Shown: positions 4,425 through 9,194 of the stretch, piece after piece
Position numbering within the stretch: position 1 is the first letter of the stretch
How the letters are laid out: each line of letters opens with the position of its first letter
Origin: a virus
Taxonomy: Duplodnaviria; Caudoviricetes
Reading direction: 5' to 3' (one strand)
Length of the DNA stretch: 61,953 bases
Virus record (IMG/VR): IMGVR_UViG_3300045135_003620
Span: 1 to 61,953 of that record
The notes under the pieces: generated by a model
Seen by the model: only the letters and a program-made list of their open reading frames with translations
Database searches by the model: none
Told to the model about the DNA's origin: nothing
Program-made: the position numbers and the translations under genes

Positions 4425-5324
4425 CTAATAAGGATTCTGACCATTCCTGATAAAGTGGTCGTAGCTATCCTCTACTAACTCATCTTCAATACTGGCGTCA
4501 TAGCCTGAGTCGACATTAGGCAGTAGTAACAAGGTCAGTATGTAATCGTACTGCTCTGCTGCCACCATCATTTCGGTAAGAATGACATCTGGACGTTCTT
4601 TGGCAAACCAATGGCAAGCCGGAACGGTTTGGCTATCGCCATACGCCGGTATTTCTTCCCGCACAGCAAGCGCCGAAGATGGCAATTCAAAGGTGGATTT
4701 TCTGGTGGCAAAAACGGCACCGGATTTATAAGCCGCATCATTGGATGACGCCCATAACATCATGCCTTCTCGGCTAGCAACTAAAACAGCGCGCTTGGGT
4801 GCAATTTCAATCCAGCGAAGCGCCGCAGCGGTAAGCGATACCCCGTAACGCTCTGCTAGGTGACTGAACAATTCAAAGCTGGGGGGTTCAGCAATGACTT
4901 GGTCTCTGAAATCATCCAAAGGCATCAACAATGTCGCGGCAAACACATCGGCCTCTTTCTCAATGGCAGGATCAACACCACCTGACCCGTTCGCTCCGCC
5001 GCACTCAAACAAGGCTTGTTGTTCACGGTGAAGAATGTAATGACCGAACTCGTGGGCAAGAGTGAAACGTCGCCTTCCTTCGTTAACAGAAGTACTATAG
5101 ACGATCATCCAGCGCGTATTGTCTTTGGATGCTTTGAGCATCCCTTCAAAATCATCAAAGTCTTCACCGACAACCACAGCGATGGGATCAGCACACGTTT
5201 GCTTGGAATACTCTAATGCAACACTTTCCACATCCACAGGAAACCGGTCAGGCCCCAACACCTGATTGAGCATTTTTGAAATCTGATTGGCTGCCTGAGC
5301 CGGACGCTTTGACTTCGCCATCAA
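4425..5324 (-). CDS. ImmA/IrrE family Zn metallo-endopeptidase (DUF955)
   Basis: RRRFTLAHEFGHYILH (HExxH) and EKEADVFAATLLMP motifs; translationally coupled to the XRE gene. Confidence 0.92.
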   Translation of the reverse strand: MMAKSKRPAQAANQISKMLNQVLGPDRFPVDVESVALEYSKQTCADPIAVVVGEDFDDFEGMLKASKDNTRWMIVYSTSVNEGRRRFTLAHEFGHYILHREQQALFECGGANGSGGVDPAIEKEADVFAATLLMPLDDFRDQVIAEPPSFELFSHLAERYGVSLTAAALRWIEIAPKRAVLVASREGMMLWASSNDAAYKSGAVFATRKSTFELPSSALAVREEIPAYGDSQTVPACHWFAKERPDVILTEMMVAAEQYDYILTLLLLPNVDSGYDASIEDELVEDSYDHFIRNGQNPY

Positions 5325-5635
5325 TCAAATGCGTCGATGATTTTCTGCAATTTGACCTTATCTCCGTCAGAAAGTGACTTATATTTACGGAAAAAGGCGA
5401 GATCTTTTACTTCCTGATCCGGTGTCGTTTCAACGGGATTCATCAAATATTCCGTGGTCACTTCCAGTGCTTTCGCCAATCGTGCGATCTTATCTGCAGA
5501 GGGGTTAGGATCTTCCTTGGTTTCCAACTCCCAGAGATAGGCCTTGCTCGATTCGGTCAAAACAGCCAACTTGTCCAAACTCAATTTTTTAGACTTTCTC
5601 AGCTCTTTAATTTTTTTACCCAAGGGCGACGACAC
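5321..5635 (-). CDS. XRE-family HTH repressor
   Basis: LGKKIKELRKSKKLSLDKLA...SKAYLWELE...NPSADKIARLAKALEVTTEYLM. Likely GTG start at 5635 with AGGAG RBS at 5643-5647. Confidence 0.92.
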   Translation of the reverse strand: MSSPLGKKIKELRKSKKLSLDKLAVLTESSKAYLWELETKEDPNPSADKIARLAKALEVTTEYLMNPVETTPDQEVKDLAFFRKYKSLSDGDKVKLQKIIDAFD

Positions 5636-5708
5636 TATTTTTCTCCTATTTCCTAGACTTACCAAGTTATCCACAATATATCACCACACAAAACACAAAT
5701 ATACCGTA

Positions 5709-5736: not shown

Positions 5737-5839
5737 CAACATTCGTTTGGTGCATCGAACACAATATTTGGGATCGCTTCATGGTGAATTGAAGTGATTG
5801 GCTTACTTGTACCCCACATATTTGGAGAGGGACTTCGTC

Positions 5840-7057
5840 ATGCTAGATGCAGAAAACCTATGTAAACTCATCAGAAAAATACCGCCCGACACGTGCCGGG
5901 CATTCTTAAACAACCACTGTGTAGTAGCGATACCCGAGCTCGATACCAAACAGAATCTAACGCAACAACGCGCCGCGATCAGTTCAGTGCTGACGGCCTT
6001 GAGCATTGCCGAGCGACAACAGATAGAACAAATCGCTGAGAGCATCATTTTGCTATCGGATGCGCTAGGGCGTGACGCACTCGCTAATGTTTGCACAAAA
6101 AATATTAGTGTCGCCAACAAGGCTGTCCTCGATGCTATAAGCAACCAATGCCTCCGTGCCCTGTGGTTCTTCCAGAATGAACACGCCTTGTTCCTTGAAG
6201 CACTCAATGTCCGTCAGGCGGATTCATTCCGGCAGAGTCGAGCATGCTACTCAGGCTTTGTGGCGCCACCGAATCTAGAAATCCACAAGGATGAAGAAGC
6301 ACTAGATGCATTTCACTCGTCGATCGCAGAAAGGCTAGATTGCGCCAAACAAGATGTCGCCATTCAGTTATTTTGCCGACTGCGCGCTGATGCCAAATCT
6401 CACGATGACACGTTGCTTTACCAAGTGAGTATTCATCACAACCTGTCACCCGAGACCATTGAATGCGTCCAAGACAGCGAAGTTGTTGCTAATGACATCA
6501 TCCGCGCGATATCCACGCACATCACCTATGAACCCAATACTGGCCATCTTGAGGTGCTATCAAAAAAACATGAGGACAGAGCACCGATTGCCAGTCTTTT
6601 TGCCGACACGATTTTAGCGGCCCCGTTCGAAGGTCAGTCCATTCCGATAAAACAGTATGATTACCAGAGTTTGGCATCACCCAAGATCTTTAACGTTGCA
6701 GGAGAACCCATTCAATCCGTCAAAGTCACCGAACTAGGTTACGACGGTCGCAAAGGTGGCGCCTCCCTGACAAAAATGAAGCTAAATACCCCAGGAACCA
6801 TCTACCAGCGTGCTCGAGAACTGTATGACGACGATTTCGCGTTTTCAGATCACACGCTCACCTACGCCAAGATCTCAATCAAATTGAAAAAACAAGGTTC
6901 AGAGCGCGCTAGGACCGTGTCGATCATTTTCAGTGGCGAGAACCAATGCAACATCAAAAGTAAGCGAGAGAAAGACCGTGCATTGTGTGATCGCCTATTG
7001 ACCAAATGGGAATTCATCAAGGAGGTCGGTCATGCTGACCAATTTGTTACTGCGTGA
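5840..7057 (+). CDS. Hypothetical protein (no recognisable domain)
   Basis: Long ORF; ATG at 5840 with GGAGAGG RBS; divergent from the XRE/ImmA pair. Confidence 0.8.
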   Translation: MLDAENLCKLIRKIPPDTCRAFLNNHCVVAIPELDTKQNLTQQRAAISSVLTALSIAERQQIEQIAESIILLSDALGRDALANVCTKNISVANKAVLDAISNQCLRALWFFQNEHALFLEALNVRQADSFRQSRACYSGFVAPPNLEIHKDEEALDAFHSSIAERLDCAKQDVAIQLFCRLRADAKSHDDTLLYQVSIHHNLSPETIECVQDSEVVANDIIRAISTHITYEPNTGHLEVLSKKHEDRAPIASLFADTILAAPFEGQSIPIKQYDYQSLASPKIFNVAGEPIQSVKVTELGYDGRKGGASLTKMKLNTPGTIYQRARELYDDDFAFSDHTLTYAKISIKLKKQGSERARTVSIIFSGENQCNIKSKREKDRALCDRLLTKWEFIKEVGHADQFVTA

Positions 7058-8018
7058 TCTTATTCGTCTGTTCGATTACTCGAACGCCGAAATCTCTTCG
7101 GGGGATGGCGAACACACGCAAGGCATACCTGCGTGGACGCTCAAGCGATTTGGACTAACACCCGAGCAACGTGAATATTGGTTCACTCGAGTGGGTTACG
7201 CTGATCACTGTTTTACCTGGTTTTACGATGAGGAAGTCGACGTTGAGGTAGAAGTCGATGATGACACCGGCGGCTATTTTTATCGGAGCCCCGAGAACTA
7301 TAAAATTCATACCATTAGCGAAGATGACATTGCCATTTACGCACCCAACACTGATCTAATCCTGCACACCATCGCCGATTTATTGGACATACCCATGGCG
7401 TTCCGCAGCGGCATCAACAAACCTGCCGTTGAGGACGTGCTTTGGAATTTGGGCAAAATGCGTATTGGTCGTGTTGATATTGATGTGTGGATTGCCAAGG
7501 AGTTTTCGTCCAGCAAACGAGAGGTTTATCACTATTTGGAAAGACCGGAATTACCCGAGCTTGGCATTTTACTGACCTGCGGCGGCCCCGTTTCTGAATT
7601 CACAAGGCGACCAAAGCGTTTTCAGATAGTCAGTCTGCTCGAAATTTTGCCGCCATCATCTGGTGCTGTGACATTTGACAAGCAATCGATCGAAAACATG
7701 GTCTCGCATACTGAATCGTCTGCGCTTACCCATTTATTTCCGGTCAATTTTAATGAATACACAAATGCTTTAACAATTGCCTCAAAAACAGAACCTTGGA
7801 TAATTGGCGGGCCTCGCCAAGCTGCTGCTATCAAATATATGGTTGAACAAGCCCATAAAGGTCGCTGGGAATTGCCAGCATCTGAGATATTGGGAGCAGC
7901 CTATGGAGATCAAAGTATGGGGCGAATTAGGCGAATGCAAGATTTGTTCAAGAGCAATACTTGCTGGAGAAGTTATATAAACAATCCTCGAAAAGGGATC
8001 TGGGGCTTCCTAACCTAA
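7032..8018 (+). CDS. Hypothetical protein with possible C-terminal winged-helix DNA-binding domain
   Basis: Overlaps the upstream gene and has an AGGAGG RBS. C-terminus QAAAIKYMVEQ...LPASEILGAA...RMQDLFK...KGIWGF looks wHTH-like (inference). Confidence 0.7.
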   Translation: MLTNLLLRDLIRLFDYSNAEISSGDGEHTQGIPAWTLKRFGLTPEQREYWFTRVGYADHCFTWFYDEEVDVEVEVDDDTGGYFYRSPENYKIHTISEDDIAIYAPNTDLILHTIADLLDIPMAFRSGINKPAVEDVLWNLGKMRIGRVDIDVWIAKEFSSSKREVYHYLERPELPELGILLTCGGPVSEFTRRPKRFQIVSLLEILPPSSGAVTFDKQSIENMVSHTESSALTHLFPVNFNEYTNALTIASKTEPWIIGGPRQAAAIKYMVEQAHKGRWELPASEILGAAYGDQSMGRIRRMQDLFKSNTCWRSYINNPRKGIWGFLT

Positions 8019-8041: not shown

Positions 8042-8731
8042 TCACCAGTAGTCCGGCTTTACAGCAGGTTTTTTCTTCGTTGGCAAACGATCGGGGAACT
8101 GGTTGGCTCGCAGTTCTTCAATCGTTATTCTCTTCCTCAGCCAATCTGAATGATTATCTAATGATCCTGGCACCCCTCGTTCAATGCCTTCACGGTGGGG
8201 TAGGATTACACCCAATCGAATGTCGGCGAAATCTTCCCTTAATGCAGCTAACGCTGGCCCCATATCGGTATCGCCCGACACAAGTATAATTTGCTGAATT
8301 CGATCACTCGCGGGCAACATTGATTGTTTGTAGACGGCTCGATACATGCTTAGGGCGATATTTACGTCTGTCTCCTTTTCCTCCAGCTTCCATATATCAA
8401 CTTGATCTTGACGAGATGGAGGTGTGGAGATATCGACAAAACGCGGCGCCTTGGCAGGGTCCAGACGATGCCGGCCCAATATTATTTCTACTCCACTGGC
8501 TTTAAGCGCTCGAATATATGCATCTTGGGCTTCCTTTGATTTGATGCCTTTGGACGCCAACTTAGGAGATACGGGAGCGGTGAAATATTGAAAAGAAACC
8601 GGCTCACAGGCGGGATTTTCAACTCTCGCAATGTGTGTGAGCAATGATGGAATATTCAGCCATTTATATTCTGTATTTGCTAGCAAACCATAGTAAAGAT
8701 TGTAGCCGTCAATAAAAAATGCTGTCCGCAT
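8042..8731 (-). CDS. NYN-domain (LabA/DUF88, PIN-fold) ribonuclease
   Basis: FFIDGYNLYYG, EEKETDVNIA and LVSGDTDMGP carry the complete acidic PIN/NYN active-site set. Confidence 0.9.
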   Translation of the reverse strand: MRTAFFIDGYNLYYGLLANTEYKWLNIPSLLTHIARVENPACEPVSFQYFTAPVSPKLASKGIKSKEAQDAYIRALKASGVEIILGRHRLDPAKAPRFVDISTPPSRQDQVDIWKLEEKETDVNIALSMYRAVYKQSMLPASDRIQQIILVSGDTDMGPALAALREDFADIRLGVILPHREGIERGVPGSLDNHSDWLRKRITIEELRANQFPDRLPTKKKPAVKPDYW

Positions 8732-8754
8732 TGATTCTTATTCCCCCTGATACG

Positions 8755-8779
8755 AAAAAACCGGCACTAGGCCGGTTTT
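8755..8779 (-). terminator. Rho-independent terminator in the NYN leader
   Basis: Minus strand AAAACCGGC-CTAGT-GCCGGTTTTTT, 24 nt upstream of the NYN start codon. Confidence 0.8.
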
Positions 8780-8830
8780 CTCACCCTAACAGCCAGCGAA
8801 CTGAATTACTGCGTACAGGGTTAAGTTGTG
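8755..8830 (-). ncRNA. Candidate ~75-nt structured small RNA or leader upstream of the NYN RNase
   Basis: Between a consensus promoter and a terminator. ACCCUG/UAGGGU, GCAGU/GCUGU and CAG-UUCG-CUG form a nested stem-loop (8783-8821). Confidence 0.5.
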
Positions 8831-8835
8831 TATGA

Positions 8836-8864
8836 ATAATAGGTAAATTTTAGTCCTTCGTCAA
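8836..8864 (-). promoter_or_regulatory. Sigma70 promoter for leader RNA and NYN
   Basis: Minus strand TTGACG-17 nt-TATTAT. Confidence 0.75.
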
Positions 8865-8885: not shown

Positions 8886-8929
8886 CCCCCCATCAGCCCC
8901 CCCCATCATGTGGGCTGACGCCCCCCCAT
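8886..8929 (+). repeat. Three C(5-9)AT direct repeats upstream of the early operon
   Basis: CCCCCAT at 8886, C9AT at 8896 and C7AT at 8921, with an embedded TCAGCCC/GGGCTGA inverted repeat. Confidence 0.55.
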
Positions 8930-8981: not shown

Positions 8982-9194
8982 GTGAACGTCAAACACATCA
9001 ATCAAACAGAACTCTCCGAGCGCTGGCAGATCAGCGCCCGGACTTTAGAACGCTGGCGCAAAGAAGGTATTGGGCCGGTTTATCTCAAGATGCATGGTCG
9101 CGTGACTTACCGAGAGGAAGACATTCTCGCCTACGAGGGTGGCTGCCTTCGCAAAAGCACTTCCGAATACGCCGACGAAGGAGACCTCGCATGA
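8982..9194 (+). CDS. AlpA/excisionase-like HTH protein
   Basis: INQTELSERWQISARTLERWRKEGIGPVYLK...RVTYREEDI; AGGAG RBS. Confidence 0.88.
   Translation: MNVKHINQTELSERWQISARTLERWRKEGIGPVYLKMHGRVTYREEDILAYEGGCLRKSTSEYADEGDLA

Follow-up and report, generated by a model that had tools for sequence, protein, structure and literature searches.

A conserved structured RNA and terminator precede HEC-09-type NYN ribonuclease genes in a provirus and its relatives: a candidate RNA-gated RNase module

In the type III toxin-antitoxin systems ToxIN, CptIN and TenpIN, the antitoxins are tandem direct repeats that the toxin processes into units, which form cyclic complexes. Here we analyse a module that resembles these systems in its layout, an NYN-domain ribonuclease gene with a structured RNA in front of it, found on the minus strand of a Caudoviricetes provirus (IMG/VR record IMGVR_UViG_3300045135_003620, rated complete; by "the window" we mean this whole stretch of 61,953 bases). 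As in the type III systems, a promoter, an RNA, an intrinsic terminator and an endoribonuclease gene follow one another, an arrangement expected to put the RNA in excess over the toxin, and both kinds of module occur on plasmids and prophages; the type III systems have an anti-phage role. They differ in the RNA, which is made of repeats in type III and is a single unit without repeats here, and in the toxin fold, ToxN/AbiQ-like in type III and NYN here. Tandem Repeats Finder reports 0 tandem repeats between 8600 and 9050, where a search for inverted and direct repeats adds only short scattered direct repeats, and PADLOC and Pfam scans of the NYN protein return only HEC-09 and NYN, with no ToxN/AbiQ-family match. 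Without tandem repeats or a ToxN fold, the module is not a member of the ToxIN family. An earlier note on this DNA had proposed a type III-like RNA-antitoxin system; its layout of promoter, RNA, terminator and RNase stands.

By analogy, the closest working precedent for this module, which we know from its sequence alone, is AbiF (Abi_2) with the non-coding RNA RCd22, from a Clostridioides difficile prophage, where an RNA is reported to act in cis and in trans and to bind the toxin (PMC12373285). Both modules are prophage-borne, lead from a promoter through a structured RNA to the gene of an RNA-targeting toxin (a putative one in the case of NYN) and have no protein antitoxin, and the mechanism that we propose below for NYN is the one reported there: the RNA would reduce expression in cis and, by binding the toxin directly, neutralise it in trans. 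The folds differ, Abi_2/HEPN-like for AbiF and NYN/PIN-like here, as do the RNAs, with two abiF motifs in RCd22 and one nested hairpin plus a terminator in our RNA, for which an Rfam scan gives no abiF motif match. Another kind of precedent is the autoregulatory leaders of the E. coli rne, rnc and pnp genes, in which a conserved hairpin in the RNase gene's own leader sets its level. Our hairpin could likewise be its enzyme's recognition site, whereas those leaders, as we know them, have no intrinsic terminator directly before the open reading frame (ORF), are not mobile and have no stand-alone copies. We know of no RNA partner for the NYN domain of MARF1 or for VPA0982.

The protein family itself has been published as HEC-09, a PADLOC candidate, in a preprint whose accessible text treats it as protein-only and makes no mention of an upstream RNA or terminator (bioRxiv 10.1101/2024.01.29.577857). 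On that description, HEC-09 and our module share the protein family, a single NYN gene, a MARF1-like fold and conserved aspartates; HEC-09 as published there is embedded in defence systems (Hma), whereas the provirus copy is a prophage moron. A search of the literature on NYN with RNA antitoxins, type III toxin-antitoxin, phage defence, abortive infection and RNA motifs found nothing relevant, in line with the earlier note, which knew of no RNA-antitoxin system with this fold, and a catalogue of 224 candidate RNAs names no NYN, DUF88 or LabA in its main text. What is new here is the RNA family and the NYN fold as a putative toxin; the design logic is already known. The parts of the module in the provirus, with the evidence for each, are the following.

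8859..8864, minus strand: -35 hexamer TTGACG (promoter scan; a TTGAC-type -35 is equally placed in homologous loci)
8836..8841, minus strand: -10 hexamer TATTAT, with a 17-nt spacer to the -35 (promoter scan)
8755..8832, minus strand: conserved structured RNA, a putative small RNA that also forms the 5' leader of the NYN transcript (covariance model, 89.1 bits, E 2.6e-19)
8822..8832, minus strand: single-stranded 5' tail, consensus CACUACUCA in relatives (RNA alignment)
8783-8821, minus strand: nested hairpin (RNAalifold and pair counts)
8816-8821 paired with 8783-8788, minus strand: outer helix P1 (RNAalifold and pair counts)
8806-8811 paired with 8794-8799, minus strand: inner helix P2 (RNAalifold and pair counts)
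8800-8805, minus strand: apical 6-nt loop UUCAGU (RNAalifold)
Between P1 and P2, minus strand: internal loop of invariant GUAC and GGCNGUU (RNA alignment)
8755..8782, minus strand: A-rich linker and intrinsic terminator (inverted-repeat search, RNAalifold)
8771-8776 paired with 8760-8765, minus strand: terminator core stem, with loop 8766-8770 and U tract 8755-8760 (inverted-repeat search)
8742..8747, minus strand: Shine-Dalgarno-like GGGGGA, 10 nt ahead of the ATG (read in the sequence)
8042..8731, minus strand: NYN-domain protein of 229 aa, HEC-09 family (Pfam, PADLOC, phrog_7929)

The roughly 100 nt 5' of the start codon are strikingly similar in 80/80 bacterial loci (the best 80 of 281 stretches encoding a relative, from species-representative genomes). 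An alignment of the provirus RNA with 66 distinct copies has a mean column identity of 84%, so that the RNA is better conserved than the protein (59-81% identity), and its RNAalifold consensus consists of P1, P2 capped by UUCAGU, and the terminator. Counting pairs on this structure, we find 99.1% of 1541 cells paired, compared with 33-59% in a control where the partner is slid by 1-3 columns. There are 51 double-changed cells, against 13.7 +/- 2.8 in shuffles, none of which (0/500) reaches 51. The compensatory changes are in six pairs, three in P1 and three in P2. The terminator stem, identical in sequence in 67/67 distinct copies, never varies and therefore yields no covariation evidence; like it, the apical loop and the junction are invariant across genera. 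The RNA structure is under selection. P1 and P2 span exactly the bases (8783-8821) where the earlier note had seen a nested stem-loop, and the comparison of homologous upstream regions that it suggested finds this stem-loop conserved, with compensatory changes. Covariation does not support its UUCG cap (in the register CAG-UUCG-CUG), and we prefer the covarying 6-bp P2 helix, which is closed by UUCAGU instead; in the provirus copy, P2 contains an A.C mismatch as well as a G.U pair. In Rfam 15, this RNA has no counterpart: the top match, AgrB, scores 18.3 bits where the gathering score is 40 (E 4), and even this sub-threshold score is driven by the terminator. The ~75-nt RNA is a real, conserved structured RNA family absent from Rfam 15.

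The window holds one copy of the RNA and one NYN gene. The sigma-70-type promoter TTGACG-17-TATTAT (8864..8836, minus strand) matches 10/12 consensus positions, as had been read before. A promoter scan of 2.2 kb lists 4 promoter-like sites against 2.8 +/- 2.0 in shuffles, so that the match by itself is not significant; what makes the promoter credible is that a TTGAC-type -35 and a -10 stand at constant distance from the RNA in homologous loci. The promoter spacing alone places the transcription start, which we infer to be near 8829-8831. The intrinsic terminator, given as 8755-8779 in the earlier note, is found at 8755-8782 by the inverted-repeat search, with arms 8754-8765 and 8771-8782 that are 92% complementary around a 5-nt loop, and a T run to 8755. 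It is not among the sites listed by a consensus terminator scan, probably because extension of the stem through A-T pairs consumes the T run. The NYN gene lies where it had been placed, with 23 nt rather than 24 nt between terminator and ATG. For the 105-nt leader, the predicted folding energy is -32.7 kcal/mol (z -2.84), a value that 2/200 shuffles also reach. Since the flanking phage genes are on the opposite strand, the note's label of a self-contained antisense moron is a fair one.

The protein matches Pfam NYN (PF01936) over residues 2-167 with 34.8 bits against a cut-off of 24.2 (E 2.8e-8), PADLOC HEC-09 (PDLC04163) over profile positions 3-194 of 203 with 84.4 bits (E 1.9e-24), and phrog_7929. 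Phage relatives score 130-210 bits with the HEC-09 profile, which makes the provirus NYN a diverged branch of HEC-09. A protein database search with a limit of E <= 0.001 finds 590 relatives; of the 120 that were listed, nearly all have a length of 229 aa. In an alignment of 22 sequences with 62-81% identity to the provirus protein, D8, E117, E118, D122, D154 and D156 are invariant, in line with the intact acidic active site claimed earlier. An AlphaFold model (pLDDT 86, pTM 0.82) has as its closest solved folds in Foldseek the MARF1 NYN domain (5YAA, 6FDL) and VPA0982 (2QIP), with E between 1e-6 and 7e-5, TM 0.64-0.71 normalised to target length, and 12-17% sequence identity. The model predicts a PIN-like alpha/beta fold with the conserved acidic pocket intact; some 60 C-terminal residues, ending in an invariant ...KKPxxKPxYW, extend beyond the MARF1/VPA0982 NYN fold. 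A sequence search of the PDB finds no relative, the top match (E 0.29) being an unrelated designed protein. One relative (P0049, 229 aa, 63% identical to the provirus NYN) is named "6-hydroxy-3-succinoylpyridine 3-monooxygenase HspA" by one source. According to reviews, the HspA protein of P. putida S16 is unlike any protein whose function is known, and the hydroxylase proper is HspB; the HspA enzyme name that NYN proteins carry therefore seems to be a mis-annotation that has been passed on.

RNA and NYN gene are closely linked. The covariance model places the RNA directly 5' of NYN in 80/80 bacterial genome loci, in 4/4 viral loci with upstream sequence (77-102 bits) and in 2/2 plasmid loci opened (89 and 93 bits); among these 80 bacterial, 4 viral and 2 plasmid loci there is no NYN without the RNA. 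The model has no match at L089 and L090, whose NYN proteins are 41% and 29% identical. Searched with the model in an unbiased manner, 26/151 Pseudomonas species genomes carry the RNA in 27 copies. A full NYN follows 21 of these and an internally deleted one follows a single copy; the other 5 have none, so that 6/27 are without an intact NYN. For metagenomes we used an exact-pattern scan, biased towards intact RNA (95 stretches, 80 loci fetched, a second view of two contigs dropped, leaving 80 distinct instances). NYN or its remains are still there in 65/80, as 52 full-length genes, 4 cut by the contig end and 9 broken ones; the other 15/80 have no NYN within 1 kb, 2 of them preceding another nuclease gene and 13 being orphans. 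A pattern scan of viral sequences gave 9 matches, of which 4 are chance matches without helix or terminator.

Some orphans retain the first NYN codons and are therefore deletion remnants. Most, phage ones included, keep the promoter at the canonical distance. Three sibling phages on the same backbone (L096, L104, L131) have promoter, RNA and terminator in the same slot and no NYN gene, and the junction of L104 is unlike that of the other two. We looked for signs of purifying selection on orphan RNA copies: orphans with a common deletion junction (L139, L142, L225) differ from one another to roughly the same degree as the coding DNA on their flanks, and those in a syntenic Pseudomonas slot (slot B) show decay. 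Two further observations concern RNA copy number. A second, diverged copy (64 bits, with a weaker terminator) is at L001:2986-3066 and also occurs in L155 and L160. It precedes an ORF (L001, 3120-3839) for a protein that has a signal peptide and a GmrSD_C/HNH-like domain (Pfam E 3.3e-12), which sits directly 5' of the RNA and NYN and whose neighbours look like type I methyltransferase fragments. The Stutzerimonas genome G003 (that of L016) also has two RNA copies (on contigs C65 and C134), each followed by NYN, the second gene being cut by the contig end.

The same layout recurs across the wider HEC-09 family. A terminator lies between RNA and NYN gene in 80/80 bacterial relatives as scored by script; the same script finds the leader in 80/80 RNA-linked NYN loci and in 3/30 canonical high-scoring PF01936 genes of Pseudomonadota. 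In class B (L227, L228; NYN 55% identical), the RNA is a variant with a helix where the GUAC/GGCNGUU junction would be, and it retains the tail, the apical GAUUCAGUUC and the terminator; in L089, the CACUACU tail and the GAUUCAAUUC loop are kept and the terminator is different. Distant phage-borne relatives (26-36% identity) are full-length HEC-09 matches in 10/10 cases (E 1e-25 to 1e-63) and have a hairpin and then a terminator just 5' of the start. To look at this group more widely, we took 145 viral stretches with relatives, kept 80, and used the 55 distinct ones with at least 130 nt upstream. A terminator-like hairpin ends within 60 nt of the start in 47/55 of these HEC-09-type loci, against 7/160 other ORFs of the same loci. 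In a Bacteroidota-like clade (11 distinct leaders), 4/6 pairs of the first hairpin and 2/4 terminator pairs are compensated, and the loop UUUCUU is conserved. The hairpin-terminator layout is a family trait, and the RNA sequence differs between branches. Together with the conservation of the RNA and the lack of a conserved protein partner, this recurrence supports a specific functional coupling of RNA and NYN.

The contexts of the module are varied. Clustering the neighbours of the 80 bacterial loci gives no conserved protein partner and no cluster common beyond one syntenic Pseudomonas slot between efflux operons, which holds 35/80 loci; the absence of a protein antitoxin, as read from the provirus, thus extends to the relatives. 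In a PADLOC scan of the nearest ORFs of 34 among the 45 loci outside this slot, 11/34 have a defence-like neighbour, a count without background control; among these neighbours are restriction-modification, PDC-S01, PDC-S32, Dpd/Zor-like helicases and mad3. On plasmids, 437/72,556 records encode an NYN relative (Klebsiella 209, Xanthomonas 63, Escherichia 49). A P. aeruginosa plasmid has the module beside a higBA pair, and a Klebsiella plasmid has it with IS26 copies on both sides and genes for a RES-domain protein and an HNH endonuclease close by (opened loci L349, L350). The Klebsiella-type module is in 10/5,426 complete E. coli genomes, always plasmid-borne, and there RefSeq annotates the protein only and no RNA. 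NYN relatives are encoded by 145 viral contigs and by only 2 records of a cultured-phage collection. Of four public sequencing runs, all consisting of contigs, one metatranscriptome has low-depth contigs that cover parts of a relative's NYN ORF.

We favour the reading, to which we give a probability of roughly 45%, that RNA and NYN form an RNA-gated RNase module working like the type III or AbiF/RCd22 systems. A constitutive sigma-70 promoter would yield mostly the ~75-nt RNA, made of the 5' tail, the nested hairpin and the terminator hairpin. As the 20-25 nt before the start leave no room for a second promoter, every NYN mRNA should come from terminator read-through. Start codons in 110 distinct leader/start combinations are GTG in 59, TTG in 43 and ATG in 8 (GTG/TTG in 102/110, 93%); the provirus NYN starts with ATG. 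A strong terminator before the ORF together with GTG/TTG starts looks like toxin-like expression, and if only read-through transcripts carry the ORF and most relatives begin it with a weak codon, the RNA would far exceed the NYN protein. We suppose that the NYN RNase has this RNA as a dedicated partner. Acting in cis, the RNA would throttle NYN synthesis, given an efficient terminator; in trans, it would most likely bind NYN through the invariant apical loop and junction and keep it inactive, an inhibition modelled on ToxI/ToxN and RCd22/AbiF. The invariant sequences of loop, junction and terminator stem point to recognition by a trans factor, for which NYN is the candidate, there being no other conserved partner. 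The presumed trigger is a failure of RNA supply, by phage transcription shut-off or by loss of the plasmid or prophage, which would free a toxic NYN to cut cellular or phage RNA, in defence or addiction.

The plasmid and prophage habitat, the weak starts and the family-wide layout fit such a module. The mobile or defence-related contexts (prophage moron, plasmids, defence-like neighbours) suggest it as well, as does the frequent loss of NYN while the RNA stays. Several points weigh on the other side. Toxicity, RNA-NYN binding and the discrete small RNA are things that we infer. A HEC-09 representative cloned with its native promoter region protected against no phage tried, and the accessible text of that preprint mentions neither toxicity nor an RNA for it (bioRxiv 10.1101/2024.01.29.577857). 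Recombinant HspA of P. putida S16 has reportedly been purified from E. coli (PMC6122326), and the protein was detected in the S16 proteome (PMC3812094); strong toxicity would be less likely if S16 HspA were a family member. That NYN never occurs without the RNA would also be expected if the RNA did no more than carry the promoter. Orphans in the slot look like decaying relics, and those with a common deletion junction are about as diverged as their flanks, so that retention of the RNA may not be selected. The 35/80 loci in one vertically inherited Pseudomonas slot are not in a defence island, and all described type III antitoxins have the tandem repeats that this RNA lacks. Overall, the earlier interpretation is partly supported.

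The rival that survives best, which we regard as possible though not probable, is a purely cis-acting leader, an attenuator or autoregulatory RNase target that works only as the 5' end of the NYN mRNA. NYN would then be a regulated RNase rather than a toxin, able perhaps to set its own level by cutting or binding its leader, and the short terminated RNAs would be by-products. A cis leader explains the linkage and the terminator as well as an RNA-gated module does, and most of the data besides: a promoter inside the leader makes obligatory linkage expected, nearly all family members have the terminator 8-40 nt ahead of the start, the orphans of the syntenic slot are decaying, and the reported purification of HspA, with the proviso on family membership given above, argues against strong toxicity. 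The alignment also offers a possible antiterminator, as the P2 3' strand GCUGG is complementary to the terminator 5' arm CCGGC; both are invariant, however, so that covariation cannot speak to this pairing, and in L089, where the terminator is different, no upstream complement to it is seen.

Pairing of the leader with the Shine-Dalgarno (SD) region is a second way in which such a leader could act. In the 105-nt fold of the provirus leader, GGGGGA is base-paired to P1's 5' strand. One Pseudomonas subclade (L055, L071, L056, L216, L045, L028 and relatives) has a tail and P1 strand, CUCAACCCC, that is a near-perfect complement of the SD region GGGG(A)UUGAG, with a pairing energy of -15 to -19 kcal/mol. 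Across the family, however, leader-to-SD duplexes have a mean of -8.70 kcal/mol for cognate pairs, -8.50 for non-cognate and -7.44 for shuffled ones; with cognate and non-cognate energies about equal, leader and SD do not co-evolve, and we reject SD sequestration by the 5' tail and P1 strand as a family-wide device, strong as it is in this one subclade. A plain attenuator also leaves the invariance of loop, junction and terminator stem across genera unexplained, and most orphans, those in phages included, keep the promoter at the right distance.

That the RNA is an independent trans-acting small RNA, possibly Hfq-dependent, which base-pairs through its tail CACUACUCA with targets other than NYN while NYN is co-transcribed by read-through, we consider improbable. 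It has the equipment of one: its 5' tail is free and conserved, an A-rich stretch leads into a terminator that ends in a U tail, and the promoter is its own; it also has stand-alone copies with promoter and terminator, and the diverged copy before the GmrSD_C-domain nuclease gene in L001, L155 and L160. The near-exclusive tie to one protein family (80/80 loci; 65/80 metagenome instances) speaks against it, as does the finding that the RNA at this position differs in distant NYN clades, which is easier to square with co-evolution with NYN than with a common cellular target. The same tie to one gene family, without metabolic context, makes a metabolite riboswitch unlikely. Very improbable, too, is a terminator that serves as an infection-sensing trap, letting NYN be read through when a phage antitermination factor or an altered RNA polymerase arrives (the lambda PR'-tR' unit is the model): the strong terminator directly before the ORF throughout the family and the prophage setting here would suit it, but the conserved, covarying first hairpin is left unexplained, the module is also chromosomal and plasmid-borne, far from phage late operons, and no Q- or N-like factor is linked to it.

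Returning to the RNA-gated module, a wider and decidedly tentative form of it, which we think somewhat unlikely, would take in the entire HEC-09 NYN family, across several phyla and on plasmids, prophages and chromosomes alike, as a novel class of RNA-antitoxin/RNase-toxin modules for abortive infection or addiction, in which a single non-repeated hairpin RNA, in terminator-made excess, restrains a PIN-like nuclease. Phages with the RNA only would use it as an antidote against NYN-armed hosts, as pseudo-ToxI is used against ToxN; their RNA-only copies, in the sibling phages, make such counter-defence directly testable. If the RNA is the working partner of NYN, then a widespread candidate defence gene that was negative as protein-only needs re-testing as an RNA-protein pair, the RNA-controlled toxins gain a further fold (NYN/PIN-like) and, with a single hairpin in place of repeats, a new type of RNA, and the RNA would be an Rfam-grade new family with clear covariation. 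Small plasmids of E. coli, Klebsiella and Pseudomonas carry the module, as do prophages, and this would provide an easy test bed. Even as a cis leader, the RNA would be a novel regulator of an RNase gene, conserved to an unusual degree.

Two observations concern the surroundings of the module in the window. Between the RNA promoter and a divergent HTH gene (8982-9194), a stretch rich in G/C runs holds two copies of the direct repeat CCCCCCATCA, 13 nt apart, at 8886-8908; similar G-rich runs are at this position in the sibling phages, and the repeats may be an operator of the early region. On the other side, the minus strand at 4425-5674 encodes an ImmA/IrrE-type peptidase and an XRE HTH protein, which match PADLOC capP (E 5.9e-65) and capH (E 3.2e-31). 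These genes are divergent from two overlapping plus-strand ORFs of 419 and 328 aa (5798-7057 and 7032-8018), the first a match to phrog_37634 and both of unknown function, with no Pfam or PADLOC match. The locus may represent a two-gene system under CapH/CapP control, or else the switch of the prophage itself, and the 419- and 328-aa ORFs adjoin the RNA in the sibling phages L096, L104 and L131 too.

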